Below, in pieces: positions 3,848-62,132 of a stretch of DNA of 64,000 nucleotides. The notes beneath the pieces are model-generated. The model had not been told where the DNA came from. It made no database searches and saw only the letters and a list, made by a program, of their open reading frames with translations. The DNA is taken from the NCBI RefSeq assembly GCF_003018255.1, contig NZ_CP027440.1. One strand, 5' to 3'. The stretch is from Escherichia coli (GTDB taxonomy: Bacteria > Pseudomonadota > Gammaproteobacteria > Enterobacterales > Enterobacteriaceae). The first letter of the stretch is position 1. The number at the start of each line of letters is the position of its first letter. The position numbers and the translations under genes are program-made.

Positions 3848-3946
3848 GCCTGATGCGCTATGCTTATCAGGCCTACGCAGTACCTGCAATATATTGAATC
3901 TGCAGGACTTTGTAGGCCGGATAAGGCGTTAACGCCGCATCAGGCA
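3848..3946. repeat. BIME: two oppositely oriented REP elements between convergent ybiT and ybiU
   Basis: GCCTGATGCGCTATGCTTATCAGGCCTAC and GTAGGCCGGATAAGGCGTTAACGCCGCATCAGGCA match the E. coli REP consensus in inverted orientation. Confidence 0.8.
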
Positions 3947-21571: not shown

Positions 21572-22900
21572 ATGTCCAGAATCAATAAGTTCGTACTTAC
21601 AGTCAGTCTGCTGATTTTTATCATGATTTCAGCAGTTGCCTGCGGGATCTACACTCAAATGGTAAAGGAACGGGTGTATAGCCTGAAACAGTCCGTTATT
21701 GATACTGCTTTTGCGGTGGCAAATATTGCTGAATATCGGCGTAGCGTGGCAATTGATCTTATCAACACGCTAAATCCCACGGAGGAACAGCTGTTGGTTG
21801 GCTTACGCACAGCTTACGCCGACTCGGTTTCACCCTCTTATTTGTACGATGTCGGTCCTTATCTGATTTCCAGTGACGAATGTATTCAGGTAAAGGAGTT
21901 CGAGAAAAATTATTGTGCAGATATTATGCAGGTTGTGAAGTATCGACATGTCAAAAATACAGGGTTTATCTCTTTTGATGGTAAAACCTTCGTCTATTAC
22001 CTCTATCCGGTAACTCACAATCGTAGTCTGATATTTTTGCTTGGTCTGGAACGTTTTTCTTTACTGTCAAAATCGCTGGCGATGGATAGCGAGAACCTGA
22101 TGTTCTCCCTGTTCAAGAACGGTAAATCGGTGACCGGTGATGAATATAACGCTAAAAACGCCATCTTCACTGTTTCGGAAGCGATGGAGCACTTCGCCTA
22201 TTTGCCGACCGGGTTGTACGTATTTGCTTATAAAAAAGACGTTTATTTTCAGGTATGTACATTGATTATTTTCTTTGCCGCATTGGTGGCAGTGATATCG
22301 GGTGCCAGTTGCCTCTATCTGGTACGCAGAGTGATTAATCGTGGTATTGTGGAGAAAGAAGCCATTATTAATAACCATTTTGAACGCGTACTGGATGGCG
22401 GGCTTTTCTTTTCGGCTGCCGATGTCAAAAAACTCTACAGTATGTATAACTCGGCATTCCTGGACGATCTGACCAAAGCGATGGGCAGAAAATCCTTTGA
22501 CGAAGATTTAAAAGCGCTGCCGGAAAAAGGCGGTTATTTGTGCCTGTTTGACGTCGATAAATTCAAAAACATTAACGACACCTTCGGTCATTTGCTGGGC
22601 GATGAAGTGTTGATGAAAGTGGTGAAAATCCTTAAATCACAGCTCCCCGTAGATAAAGGTAAAGTCTACCGCTTCGGCGGTGACGAATTTGCGGTGATTT
22701 ATACGGGTGGAACGCTGGAAGAGTTGCTATCGATTCTAAAAGAAATTGTTCATTTCCAGGTGGGAAGCATTAATTTAAGCACCAGTATCGGTGTAGCGCA
22801 TTCAAATGAATGTACTACCGTCGAACGCTTGAAAATGCTGGCGGATGAGCGACTGTATAAGAGTAAGAAAAACGGCAGGGCGCAGATTAGCTGGCAGTAG
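21572..22900 (+). CDS. dgcI: Membrane diguanylate cyclase (GGDEF domain)
   Basis: 442-aa ORF; GGDEF motif (RFGGDEF) near the C-terminus; 7-nt gap after pdeI. Confidence 0.85.
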
Positions 22901-22913
22901 AATTAGAATAGTG

Positions 22914-22941
22914 TTAGTACCCCTTAATCAAGGGGTACTAA
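22914..22941. repeat. 28-bp perfect stem-loop at the dgcI-distal edge of the two-gene cassette
   Basis: TTAGTACCCCTT-aatc-AAGGGGTACTAA: 12-bp perfect arms, 4-nt loop, no U-tract on either strand. Confidence 0.7.
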
Positions 22942-22969
22942 TGAATGTGGTAAATCATTTGCAAACATT

Positions 22970-23299
22970 TTACTTTGCAAAAACTTCCGGCCCTTTTATT
23001 GCCAATGTATTCAAAATACGTAATGCCGGGCCGCTCGGTTTTATTTCATTACGTTCCCATTTCGAGACACTTTCTTTTGACATTCCCATTGTATGTGCCA
23101 GCACGGATTGTGACATGCCGTATCGGGTGCGGATGGCTTTGATCTCTTCACCCGTCATTGATTTGACTTTGGCTATACGGGCGCTGACTTCACGAGCTTT
23201 GACCATGACGGCAATGGCATCAACTTCACTATCAGACATCAGGCCCAGTGCATTCAGTTCCTTTGCATCTTCCAGCATCATTTGTAATTTATCGCTCAT
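22970..23299 (-). CDS. HTH (XRE/MqsA-C-terminal-like) DNA-binding protein; candidate antitoxin and autorepressor
   Basis: 109-aa ORF; C-terminal HTH region (YGMSQSVLAHTMGMSKESVSKWERNEIKPSGPALRILNTLA); GAGGTG Shine-Dalgarno; ATG overlaps the upstream ORF's stop by 11 nt. Confidence 0.7.
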   Translation of the reverse strand: MSDKLQMMLEDAKELNALGLMSDSEVDAIAVMVKAREVSARIAKVKSMTGEEIKAIRTRYGMSQSVLAHTMGMSKESVSKWERNEIKPSGPALRILNTLAIKGPEVFAK

Positions 23300-23675
23300 T
23301 TTTCACCTCAATCAAAAAGCCAGTTTCGATCAAATCCTCTATTTGCTTATTGCTAAAGGCCAGAAATGCATTTGCCATTTTTTTGTAGGCCGCCAGTTCA
23401 TCATCTTCGATTTCTTTGGTTCCTTTACTGCTTAGACCACTCTTGGACCAACCATCATAAAAAAACACATGATTTGCTGATTTAAAAAAGATAATTGTTC
23501 TGGCTCCACCACTCTTTCCTTGTTGGAGGGGTAAACGTTTTTTGATGACACCGCTACCTAAATCAGCCTCCCATATGCCCTGAATCACTTCTTCAGCGGC
23601 AGCCATGAGAACTTTATCGTGAATACCAAGTTTTTTCGTGCTTTGGCTGAATCGTCTTGCCTTATACACACCCAT
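23289..23675 (-). CDS. RelE/ParE-superfamily-like toxin candidate (DUF1044/COG4737-type, GKSGGxR motif)
   Basis: 128-aa ORF; AGGA Shine-Dalgarno 7 nt upstream of the ATG; conserved DLGSGVIKKR...GKSGGARTIIFF core typical of this toxin family; AT-rich relative to flanking core genes. Confidence 0.65.
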   Translation of the reverse strand: MGVYKARRFSQSTKKLGIHDKVLMAAAEEVIQGIWEADLGSGVIKKRLPLQQGKSGGARTIIFFKSANHVFFYDGWSKSGLSSKGTKEIEDDELAAYKKMANAFLAFSNKQIEDLIETGFLIEVKNER

Positions 23676-23690
23676 ACATCCATCCTTGTG

Positions 23691-23727
23691 GTAATGTTTA
23701 CTATAGTAACCATTACGCTTATTTCAA
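23691..23727 (-). promoter_or_regulatory. Sigma70-like promoter (-35 TTGAAA, 16-nt spacer, -10 TATAGT) overlapped by a 26-bp palindromic operator
   Basis: Minus-strand read TTGAAA-N16-TATAGT; palindrome GTAATGTTTACTATAGTAACCATTAC (23691-23716) contains the -10 and sits about 15 nt upstream of the toxin ATG. Confidence 0.6.
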
Positions 23728-23900
23728 GTAATTGCGATCAAAACTTTAATTTGGTGTGAAAAAGTGAGAGTTGCCTCGAGTACGATTCATTTTTCTCGAT
23801 TTATGCGTCAGGGGATTTTGTGCGTAAGGGTAGGACATCGGGAAGGGTAGCAGAGGCAGATCGAAGAACAATATCCTTGTTAGATCTGCCTTAAGATTAA

Positions 23901-33321: not shown

Positions 33322-34529
33322 CAACTATTCTCCATCGCCGTCTGCGTTTTGGTATCGGGTTTGGCGACGGCTTTCGCGACAATAGCCGCGAGAATAACCA
33401 GCGCCAGTACAACCAGCATTGCACTACGTAATCCATAATGTTCGCCGAGATAGCCCAGCAGTGGCGGCCCGACGAGGAAAGCCAGATAACCGGTCGTAGC
33501 TACCACGCTGACGCGGGTTGGTGCATCGGGGCCGGTATCGCTGGCGGCAGAAATGGTCAGCGGGAAGCCCAACGAGGCACCCAGTCCCCAAAGTACAACA
33601 GACACCCCAGCAACCCAGGCGCTATCGACAAAAATAATCAGCCCAATACCCAACGCCCCCATTAGTGCACTGGCCCGAACCACGGCAACGCGACTGTAAC
33701 GGTCAATGAACCAACCGCCGGTAAAGCGTCCAACGGTCATCCCCAGGGTAAAACCGGCATAAATCAGCGAGCCGGAAGTAGGGCTAAAACCGTGACCGTC
33801 AACCATTAATAAGGGTAACCAGTCGTTGGCAGAACCTTCGGCAAAGGCCATCGCCAGCACCACAACACCAATCAGCAGCAACTGGATATCGCGATAAAAA
33901 GGTACGCCTTTTTCACCATGCTGGGTGCCATCGGCAGCATTTTTGCCCGTACCATCAGGGATTGCCTGAATGGCGATATAAATAGGCGCGATGCCTACCA
34001 GCGCCGCCAATAAAATGTGCACCGTTGCCGGAACGCCAAAGGCCGTTAGTGCCATCCCGACACCAGCGCCTGCCAGCGTGCCCAGGCTATAAAAACCGTG
34101 CATCATCGGCAAAACCGTCTTATTCATTTCTCGCTCAACGGCAGCACCTTCAACGTTTATCGCCACTTCCGCAGAACCAAAACTTGCCCCAAAGACGCCG
34201 AGACCAACCGCGAAGAGCAGGGGCGATGTCAGCCAGAGTGCCAGACTTAGTATCATCATCCCGATCAATGCGCAGGACATCGTGACCAGGATGACATTAC
34301 GCGTCCCAAAGCGTTTCACTAACCACGCCGAGCAGAGAATACCGCTCATTGAACCGATCGACAGACCAAAGAGGACTCCGCCCATTTCAGCGATCGAAAC
34401 AGAAAGAATATCGCGGATAGCAGGCGTACGGGTTGCCCAGGACGCCATTAACAGGCCTGGCAAAAAGAAGAACATAAACAGCGCCCAGGTTCGGCGTTTC
34501 AATGCATTACGTGAAGAATTTACGGTCAT
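33321..34529 (-). CDS. ybjJ: MFS-type inner membrane transporter
   Basis: 402-aa multi-TM ORF. Confidence 0.85.
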
Positions 34530-34612
34530 AGATCACGTCAAAATAAGAAGAGGGAAGACAACATTAGCAAGGTTGTGTACATTTGTACACAATTGCAGAG
34601 AGAGGAAATGAC

Positions 34613-35149
34613 ATGCGTCGCGCTAACGATCCGCAACGGCGAGAAAAAATTATCCAGGCCACGCTGGAGGCGGTGAAACTTTATGGAATACATGCTGTTA
34701 CGCACCGCAAAATTGCTACCCTTGCCGGGGTACCGTTGGGGTCGATGACCTACTATTTTTCAGGAATTGATGAGTTGTTGCTGGAGGCGTTCAGCAGTTT
34801 TACTGAGATCATGTCCCGGCAATATCAGGCATTTTTTAGCGATGTTAGTGATGCTCCGGGCGCATGCCAGGCTATCACCGATATGATTTACAGCTCACAG
34901 GTTGCAACGCCGGATAACATGGAGCTGATGTACCAGCTCTACGCGCTGGCTAGCCGAAAACCGCTATTAAAAACGGTAATGCAAAACTGGATGCAGCGCA
35001 GTCAGCAAACGCTCGAACAATGGTTTGAACCCGGAACCGCCCGCGCGCTTGATGCGTTTATTGAGGGGATGACGCTGCATTTTGTCACCGACCGTAAGCC
35101 GCTATCGCGCGAGGAGATTTTGAGGATGGTTGAGAGGGTTGCAGGGTAG
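34613..35149 (+). CDS. rcdA: TetR-family transcriptional regulator
   Basis: ATG giving [21 protein letters not shown] (178 aa); N-terminal TetR HTH. Confidence 0.85.
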
Positions 35150-35168
35150 TAGATAAATTTTAGACAAC

Positions 35169-35247
35169 AAAAAACCCACCAACCTTGAACCGAAATGGCG
35201 GGGTTGATGGGCTCCACAAAATGGGGACATCAAAGAAAAGCAGTGGC
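35169..35247 (-). ncRNA. rybB: RybB small RNA (sigma-E-dependent, Hfq-binding)
   Basis: Minus-strand read GCCACTGCTTTTCTTTGATGTCCCCATTTTGTGGAGCCCATCAACCCCGCCATTTCGGTTCAAGGTTGGTGGGTTTTTT matches RybB, including the terminator hairpin and U-tail. Confidence 0.9.
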
Positions 35248-35290
35248 ACTAATTAAGACTGATGCCCTGCGGAAAAGTTCTGCGGTTGTG
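35248..35290 (-). promoter_or_regulatory. Sigma-E-type promoter of rybB
   Basis: Minus-strand GAACTT (-35-like) and TCTTA (-10-like) upstream of the RybB 5' end. Confidence 0.55.
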
Positions 35291-35323
35291 CAAAAAAATT
35301 TCATTTTCAGGGCAACTTCAGTT

Positions 35324-37009
35324 TTATCCTAATCCTGGCCATACCATGACGATGATTGTCCCTGCCAGCGTCAGCAGGACGTTGGCGATTGCGTAAGTGC
35401 CCGCATAGCCCAGTGCCGGGATATTACTGCGAGCTGTATCACTGATGATCTCCATTGCCGGCGCGCAGGTGCGTGCGCCCATCATTGCGCCGAACAACAG
35501 TGCGCGGTTCATTCGCAATACATAAGCACCGAACAAGAAGCAGATAACCACTGGCACCAGACTGACAATCAATCCGGCAATCAACATCTGACCGCCAATC
35601 GCGCCCAGGCCGTTATTAATACCGCTACCAGCGCTCAGACCAACGCCTGCCATAAACACCATCAAGCCGAACTCCTTCACCATGCTTAATGCACCCTGCG
35701 GAATGTAACCGAAGGTCGGGTGGTTAGCACGCATAAAGCCCAGCATAATTCCGGCGAATAACAACCCGGCAGCGTTCCCCATACCGAAACTGAATGTGCT
35801 GAACTGGAAGGTGATCATCCCGATCATCAGCCCAATAACAAAGAAGGCGCAGAATGCCAGCAAGTCAGTGACCTGGCTGTGAATCGAGATAAAGCCGATG
35901 CGATCGGCGATGGTTTTTACCCGGCGGGCATCGCCGCTGACTTGTAAAACGTCACCTTTGTTAAGCACGACGTTGTCATCAATCGGCATCTCAATCTGGC
36001 TACGTATGACGCGGTTAAGGAAGCAACCGTGATCGGTCAACTTCAGTTGTGCCAGGCGTTTGCCAACAGCGTTATGGTTTTTAACGACCACTTCTTCAGT
36101 GACGATACGCATGTCGAGAAGGTCACGATCGAAAACTTCTTTGCCATTACGGAAACTGGGATCGAGTCGGGCGTGGGCGTCAGGATAGCCTACCAACGCT
36201 ATTTCATCGCCCATTTGTAGTACGGCATCACCGTCTGGATTTGCCAGAATCCCGTTACGCCGAATACGTTCAATGTAACAGCCAGTTTGTCGATAAATAC
36301 CCAGTTCACGCAGATTTTTGCCGTCGGTCCAGGCTACCAGCTCCGGGCCGACGCGGTAGGCGCGGATCACCGGCAAATAAACCTTACGGTTGGCATCTGT
36401 GTCCAGGCCACGTTCGCGGGCGATTTGCTGGGCGCTGGTCTGTAAGTCCTGATGCTGCAATTTCGGCAAGTAACGCGCACCAACAATCAAACTCACCAGG
36501 CCGATTAAATAGGTTAAGGCATACCCGAGGCTCAGATTATCCAGTGCCAATGAGAGCTGCCTGCTTTCCATGCCGGAATGACGCAGTGTATCGCCAGCAC
36601 CGACCAGAACCGGTGTTGACGTCATAGAGCCTGCTAACATACCGGCCGTCAGGCCAATATCCCAGCCAAACAGCTTACCTAACCCTAAGGCGATGACCAG
36701 CGCACTGCCAACCATCACCAGTGCTAACATTAGGTAATTTTTCCCATCGCGAAAAAAAATGGAAAAAAAGTTCGGTCCGGCTTCGACCCCGACGCAGAAA
36801 ATAAACAGCATAAAGCCAAGATTAAGCGCGTCGGTGTTAATGCTGAAATGTTGTTGGCCTAATAACAGCGATACGACTAAAACGCCAATGGAATTACCCA
36901 GTTGGATCGAACCAAGTCGTAATTTCCCGAGACATAGCCCAAGCGCGAGGACCACAAATAATAACAGAATGTAATTCCCATTTAACAATTCGGCGACGTT
37001 TATATTCAC
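35324..37009 (-). CDS. ybjL: Putative AAE-family transporter with TrkA-C domains
   Basis: 561-aa ORF with two hydrophobic domains flanking a soluble central region. Confidence 0.85.
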
Positions 37010-46835: not shown

Positions 46836-46858
46836 AAAAGCCGCAGGTGCGGCTTTCT
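46836..46858. terminator. Bidirectional intrinsic terminator between convergent rlmC and artJ
   Basis: Stem AGCCGCA / GCGGCT with 3-nt loop, flanked by an A-run and T-run. Confidence 0.75.
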
Positions 46859-61812: not shown

Positions 61813-62132
61813 GAAAAACCAGTCCTTGCAAAGAAGATTCGAAATGCGCGATGACACACTACTGAAAGCGGAAGGACGAGTAAAGTTGCAATTAAAAGGA
61901 AATGTTATGCATCAGAGGGGGATTTTTAATTCTATATGAGTGTTTAGCATTGTTGCGCTCCTTTCATGTGCAATGCCATATAAAGCCACTGGCGCAGGGA
62001 GCGGCCAGTTGCCGCCGCTCCCTGCCCCCCCGGCCTTCGGGGAACGCCTCGGCGATTTTAACGCCACCAACACCCGTGCGGTTTGTAACGTCGAAGATAA
62101 AACCACCAGGGCAGACAACATGCCAATGCTAA

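Follow-up and report, generated by a model that had tools for sequence, protein, structure and literature searches.

The window analysed here comprises 64,000 nt of one strand of the Escherichia coli contig NZ_CP027440.1 (assembly GCF_003018255.1) and is colinear throughout with positions 853,768-917,219 of the K-12 MG1655 chromosome. Within it, two protein-coding genes are convergent. The gene rcdA (synonym ybjK; 34613-35149, plus strand) codes for a TetR-family regulator; its coordinates were derived from the offset to K-12 and from RefSeq annotation of identical DNA. The gene ybjL (35324-37009, minus strand) codes for a member of the aspartate:alanine antiporter family (NCBIfam NF003440, 1178 bits). 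Between the two, the minus strand carries a 79-nt sequence, GCCACUGCUUUUCUUUGAUGUCCCCAUUUUGUGGAGCCCAUCAACCCCGCCAUUUCGGUUCAAGGUUGGUGGGUUUUUU, which we assign to the small RNA RybB (35169-35247). Its 5′ end lies 76 nt from the stop codon of ybjL, which is encoded on the same strand, and its 3′ end lies 19 nt from the stop codon of the downstream gene rcdA.

The RNA begins with a G at 35247, and its tail ends with a U at 35169. The whole 64-kb window was scanned against Rfam release 15, which resulted in two matches above the gathering score. RybB (RF00110) was the top match: it scored 104.1 bits (gathering score, 40; E = 2.5e-20) and extended over all 79 model positions (1-79). This match corresponds to 35166-35244 on the minus strand, with a posterior probability of 1.00, and its frame is offset by 3 nt from that of the transcript, leaving out the 5′ GCC and taking in three bases beyond the U-tail. 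In a permissive rescan of the region 34400-36000, RybB was the only family with E ≤ 1. The initial annotation had assigned a 79-nt RybB RNA to the minus strand of the rcdA-ybjL spacer and had named, in advance, a search with Rfam or a covariance model as the check, which the RF00110 score has now borne out. It had also described the match as extending along the full length of RybB; while this is correct end to end in Rfam, the agreement with K-12 is 78 of 79 nt, the window carrying a G at nt 69.

The rybB gene of K-12 (b4417, 887979-888057, minus strand) has the same position, strand, and neighbours as that in the window, and the two RNAs agree in seed, terminator architecture, and U-tail. When the 301 bases surrounding rybB were compared to 5426 complete E. 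coli genomes, matches were obtained in 5422, eight of them at 100%; the rybB locus was found in 5418 of the 5426 (99.9%). In the window, rybB is a single chromosomal copy with the usual synteny. The locus was also encountered in sixteen PLSDB records which are labelled as plasmids. Several of these, of 0.7-4.9 Mb, probably represent chromosomes, or fragments thereof, that have been mislabelled; others are 36-74 kb long and are classified as non-mobilizable.

Upstream of the RNA, we found both elements of a sigma-E promoter on the minus strand. The -35 element AGAACTTTT (35273-35281) agrees with the sigma-E consensus GGAACTTTT at 8 of 9 positions, and the -10 element GTCTTA (35254-35259) agrees with the consensus GTCAAA at 4 of 6 (consensus sequences from PMC1804206). 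The boxes GAACTT (35275-35280) and TCTTA (35254-35258), which had been noted as sigma-E-like by the initial annotation, are contained in these elements. They are separated by 16 nt, and 6 nt lie between the final A of the -10 element and the +1 G at 35247. The pattern GAACTT-N15-17-TCTTA has this single match in the 64-kb window, compared to 0.04 matches expected by chance. The 75 nt located 5′ of RybB are identical to those of K-12 at all 75 positions.

To delineate the promoter across species, orthologous loci were retrieved from one genome per species by searching for RybB nt 5-24 as an exact 20-nt pattern; the invariance of these nucleotides in the resulting set is thus built into the search and is no evidence, and divergent RybB genes lie outside the sample. 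A match in a Syntrophobacterales MAG proved to be a chance occurrence of the 20-nt pattern, with no RybB around it, and was excluded (L022). The 113 distinct loci represent many genera of the Enterobacterales (Escherichia, Citrobacter, Salmonella, Enterobacter, Klebsiella, Serratia, Yersinia, Proteus, Providencia, Xenorhabdus, and others) and were compared in ungapped register from +1. The heptamer GAACTTT at -33 to -27 carries 1.87-2.0 bits per position. Position -13 is an A in 106 of the 113 loci, and G-12, T-11, C-10, and A-7 occur in every one of them, while -9 and -8 vary. The two mismatches of the E. coli -10 element to the consensus fall precisely on these two variable positions, and the K-12 box is identical to that of the window. 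Between the boxes, the spacer from -25 to -14 carries mostly 0.05-0.6 bits per position, the exceptions being -19 (0.74 bits) and -18 (0.81 bits). The search pattern is located inside the RNA, and this promoter footprint is therefore not a by-product of the way in which the loci were retrieved.

A second block of conservation was found further upstream. The A/T tract AAATTTTTTT (-54 to -45; 35292-35301, minus strand) carries 0.7-1.6 bits per position, compared to 0.03-0.3 bits in its flanks. It is probably an UP-like element and as such part of the functional promoter. The extent given in the initial annotation thus has to be revised: both boxes had been placed correctly, but the -10 element is better described as GTCTTA than as TCTTA, and the A/T tract lies beyond the interval that had been noted, which ended at 35290.

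The RNA itself was examined by folding and by alignment of the 64 distinct RybB sequences, in which base pairs were counted. The 5′-terminal pairing domain GCCACUGCUUUUCUUU is unchanged with respect to K-12 and Salmonella; in the window, this target-pairing ('seed') domain comprises nt 1-16 (35232-35247, minus strand). Nucleotides 3-12 (35236-35245) contain the motif CRCUGCUUUU, which has been described as the conserved seed of sigma-E-dependent small RNAs that repress OmpA and OmpC (PMC6694218). Folding of the whole RNA yields -24.6 kcal/mol, and the energy-minimised structure pairs nt 2-5 with nt 31-34, by which the seed would be masked. We rejected this helix, as it shows zero covariation and as 17 of the 64 distinct RNAs cannot form its A4-U32 pair; this fits, if indirectly, with a free 5′ end of RybB and an accessible seed. 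Complements of the seed with at most one mismatch occur three times in the window, one of them being rybB itself on the opposite strand; this does not differ significantly from the 1.5 that are expected. The genes for the known targets lie outside the window.

The 3′ part forms a Rho-independent terminator (35173-35213, minus strand), and the hairpin and U-tail described by the initial annotation could be confirmed. The fold has a 12-bp stem made up of the 5′ arm nt 35-46 (35202-35213) and the 3′ arm nt 64-75 (35173-35184), a 17-nt loop with a small inner helix, and a tail of six U residues. Seven of the 12 pairs show compensatory changes among the 64 RNAs (e.g., A-U to G-C, U-A to A-U, C-G to U-A). 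Overall, 98.1% of the cells are paired in this stem, compared to 20-48% when the partner strand is slid. The three tested helices were also evaluated jointly, and none of 500 shuffles matched the observed covariation score, although the loci are related and their independence is overstated by this figure. A generic terminator scan had missed this terminator, which is explained by its restriction to loops of 3-8 nt and is no evidence against the terminator. The T-run which encodes the U-tail is conserved in the 64 distinct RNAs. The tail (35169-35174, minus strand; read from the sequence) forms the 3′ end of the transcript and is part of the Hfq-binding module. It is known that the U-tail of RybB has a role in Hfq binding. 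The 3′ part of RybB has been described as an Hfq-binding domain plus terminator which acts as a scaffold (PMC6694218).

The Rfam match, the synteny, the near-identity to K-12, the identical promoter, the footprint of the sigma-E boxes, and the covariation in the terminator stem make us all but certain, as far as a sequence can tell, that this locus is the rybB gene. At the sequence level, all features that define the RybB family are present in the window.

The close spacing of ybjL and rybB raises the question of where ybjL transcripts end. The promoter and the A/T tract occupy nearly all of the ybjL-rybB spacer. A location of ybjL upstream on the rybB strand was seen in 86 of the 104 loci which have enough flanking sequence, with a spacing of 61-98 nt. 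A consensus scan did not detect a terminator in the 76-nt spacer of the window. The E. coli spacer RNA (35248-35323) does fold into a long hairpin around the -35 box (z = -2.97), the arms of which pair GCCCUG at -66 to -61 with CAGGGC at -22 to -17. The 85 distinct spacers linked to ybjL had a mean z of -1.39, compared to -0.31 in a control segment taken from within ybjL, so that the spacers appear more structured than the control; as the loci are related, this difference is no more than suggestive.

We considered that this hairpin might be the intrinsic terminator of ybjL and a general feature of the locus, and rejected this possibility: in 72 of the 85 loci, the stablest hairpin has its end between or within the promoter boxes (-25 to -6), and just 4 of the 85 show a T-rich tail after it. 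When the hairpin is forced to end before the T-run of the -35 element, a stability of at least -10 kcal/mol is reached in 14% of the ybjL-linked loci, and in E. coli such a hairpin is weak (-6.4 kcal/mol, z = -1.7). Only in Enterobacter-type loci, which make up these 14%, is a terminator-like hairpin with its end in the -35 box both strong and supported by visible compensatory changes. We conclude that a terminator-like hairpin within the promoter is specific to certain lineages and is not general. E. coli ybjL is without a convincing terminator of its own, and some of its transcripts may run into rybB and end at the RybB terminator.

This leads to a reading in which the RybB hairpin and U-tail serve mainly, or in addition, as the terminator of ybjL, so that part of the RybB-containing RNA would represent the 3′ ends of ybjL read-through transcripts and not the product of the sigma-E promoter. 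The short distance on the same strand, which recurs in most orthologous loci, the negative result of the consensus scan, and the weakness of the E. coli hairpin before the -35 T-run speak for it. On the other hand, the hairpin with z = -2.97 might itself pause or stop the polymerase, and the strong terminator-like hairpin inside the promoter of Enterobacter-type loci suggests that insulation of rybB is sometimes selected. In addition, RybB levels were strictly sigma-E-dependent in published work (PMC1804206), and a ybjL read-through RNA would not have the seed at its 5′ end. We consider such a dual use possible but on balance rather unlikely; it would be compatible with the assignment of the locus to rybB. 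A more elaborate version holds that ybjL of E. coli ends at the RybB terminator, generating mRNAs with a complete but 5′-masked RybB in their 3′ UTR, and that the spacer hairpin and the minority allele G69 might tune read-through, processing, or phage integration. We regard this as distinctly improbable speculation, given that the spacer hairpin is moderately supported and lineage-specific and that S. Typhimurium also has G69.

Transcription from the opposite side may also reach this region. On the plus strand, a terminator scan detected no terminator-like site downstream of rcdA before position 35894, and the RybB hairpin is not followed by a T-run on that strand. Judging from this arrangement, rcdA transcripts may extend antisense across RybB.

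Between the ybjL stop codon and the 3′ end of the RNA, promoter included, the window differs from K-12 at a single position: RNA nt 69 (35179, minus strand) is a G in the window, while it is an A in K-12. This converts the pair U41-A69 into U41.G69, and the helix is kept. Two more substitutions with respect to K-12 occur just 3′ of the RNA, at positions 35164 and 35156 of the window. Among 5420 E. coli records, 738 contain the exact 79-nt allele of the window and 4497 contain that of K-12. The G69 allele did not occur in any other species of the genome scan; however, an S. Typhimurium record carries the same G. RybB from S. Typhimurium (located between STM0869 and STM0870) was reassembled from two halves which overlap by an 8-bp duplication. 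It is identical to the RNA of the window at 79 of 79 positions, including G69, and it has the same flanking genes, whereas the promoter spacer and the flanking sequences differ and the -10 element is GTCATA rather than GTCTTA. Given this complete identity, the window carries the RNA of the Salmonella experiments (PMC1804206), and it is thus the exact allele for which sigma-E dependence and omp mRNA decay have been studied.

The same data bear on the possibility that the window holds a decayed or silent copy of rybB, with, for example, the terminator/Hfq module being weakened by G69. The one substitution with respect to K-12 does fall inside the terminator stem, but a U.G wobble keeps the pair, the promoter corresponds base for base to that of K-12, and an RNA which is shared by 738 E. 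coli records and which is expressed and active in S. Typhimurium (PMC1804206) is hard to reconcile with decay, as is a single chromosomal copy in normal synteny. We therefore consider a silent copy very unlikely. That the locus codes for a small protein instead of, or besides, the RNA regulator is hardly credible and was rejected: while the six-frame list contains overlapping ORFs (35102-35233, minus strand, 43 aa; 35002-35217, minus strand, 71 aa; 35195-35332, plus strand, 45 aa), both minus-strand ORFs overrun the RNA, having their stop codons at least 65 nt past its 3′ end at 35169, so that a RybB transcript cannot contain either of them in full, the plus-strand ORF crosses the rybB promoter in antisense orientation, indels of 1 and 2 nt among the orthologues at nt 25-26 and in the loop would shift the frame, the substitutions in the stem are paired and compensatory as predicted for an RNA structure, and the curated K-12 record has no CDS at rybB.

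The 3′ end of rybB corresponds to the attachment site of P2-like (Peduoviridae) prophages. In Klebsiella phage 4LV2017, a RybB match underlies the annotated attR, and the core common to attL and attR is ATGGGTTTTTTGTTGCCTG, made up of RybB nt 69-79 and the 8 nt downstream. The equivalent of this 19-nt core in the window (35161-35179, minus strand) is unoccupied and differs from the Klebsiella core at 3 of 19 positions. The attachment site was also located at 8-27 and 33422-33440 in record L125 and at 1501-1529 in record L126. In an E. coli Peduoviridae prophage record, the integrase gene is located directly beside rcdA. It has been reported that Felsduovirus prophages reside in rybB in 109 E. 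coli genomes (hotspot #29; PMC10121019) and that an island in Klebsiella lies "precisely within" rybB (PMC4048246). In the window, G69 occupies the first position of the att core. An origin of this base from a prophage remnant was nevertheless rejected, as both phage-side copies have an A at this position.

Another type of insertion was encountered in S. Typhimurium AB571791.1 (GI-Cluster 7-6), where an IS26-bracketed resistance island of ca. 125 kb splits rybB. The two halves comprise nt 1-36 and nt 29-79 and share the 8-bp target duplication TTGTGGAG (L127 630-684; L128 2308-2420). Because the gene is split by the island, this strain should be devoid of intact RybB.

Several other regions of the window differ from K-12. 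The segment 1-22899 (ybiR to dgcI) is 95.8% identical to K-12 with 53 gap openings. Between dgcI and rimO, ca. 1 kb (22899-23896) is not present in K-12 and contains two overlapping ORFs on the minus strand: the ORF at 23289-23675 codes for a RelE-family toxin (Pfam PF06296, E = 2.9e-32), and that at 22970-23299 codes for an HTH_3 protein with a weak match to the MqsA antitoxin. From their similarities, the two look like a type II toxin-antitoxin pair. With respect to K-12, ca. 150 bp are missing between rlmC and artJ and ca. 64 bp between artJ and artM, and the lysO-aqpZ spacer carries a shorter replacement sequence. The sites of difference are located within 1-22899 and at 46838-46855, 47810, and 61912-62130; they probably reflect differences in REP-type intergenic elements. 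The Rfam scan also reported the small RNA ES036 (CssrF; RF02751) at 3869-3911 on the minus strand, in the ybiT-ybiU intergenic region, with 41.6 bits at a gathering score of 37.6; K-12 has no annotation at the corresponding site.

RybB belongs to a set of regulators with a common logic, to which MicA and MicL (E. coli) as well as MicV and VrrA (Vibrio cholerae) can be assigned: a sigma-E promoter, dependence on Hfq, and the repression of mRNAs for envelope proteins. MicV and VrrA have the CRCUGCUUUU seed in common with RybB (PMC6694218; PMC4102768). Outside the seed, however, all four are unrelated to RybB in sequence, and they are encoded at different loci.

The following mechanism is drawn from experimental work on E. 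coli K-12 and on Salmonella, and for the window the sigma-E dependence, the Hfq binding, and the target set of RybB are thus adopted from the literature, as is the accumulation of the RNA under envelope stress or in stationary phase. When unfolded outer-membrane proteins build up, the anti-sigma factor RseA would be degraded and sigma-E set free. RNA polymerase carrying sigma-E would then bind to the -35 element AGAACTTTT and the -10 element GTCTTA, probably aided by the upstream A/T tract, and would start transcription at the G at 35247. The GC-rich hairpin and the U6 tail would end transcription, resulting in the 79-nt RNA, and this 3′ module of hairpin and U-tail would be bound by Hfq. The single-stranded 5′ end (GCCACUGCUUUU...) would pair with the mRNAs of ompC, ompA, ompW, tsx, and lamB, among many others, by which translation would be blocked and decay would be accelerated. 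Fewer new porins would then be inserted into the damaged envelope, which would feed sigma-E activity back down.

Several published experiments support the individual steps. The activities of the rybB and micA promoters drop to near background in an rpoE deletion strain, and omp mRNA decay is accelerated by RybB (PMC1804206). In a genomic SELEX analysis of E. coli, the rybB promoter was the highest peak for RpoE holoenzyme, with a 55-fold signal (PMC5493296). A rybB-lacZ fusion was found to be induced by RpoE, with repression being exerted through RseA and NsrR (PMC12249550). Every sequence element behind the published RybB experiments stands unchanged in the window.

RybB is among the best-studied bacterial small RNAs and is a model for seed pairing. 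It is already known and characterised and is ordinary in this genome, so that no new biology arises from its presence. What remains is the matter of annotation. The curated K-12 record has a minus-strand ncRNA feature for rybB (b4417) in the rcdA-ybjL spacer, whereas the PGAP-annotated RefSeq records of E. coli have no feature over rybB among the records listed. The remark in the initial annotation that ORF-based annotation misses this gene thus proved to be justified. Because rybB occurs in 99.9% of the genomes and yet is without a PGAP feature in the records listed, pipelines which are based on ORFs or on PGAP need an additional Rfam scan in order not to miss a central regulator of the envelope stress response, the gene for which at the same time serves as a prophage integration site.
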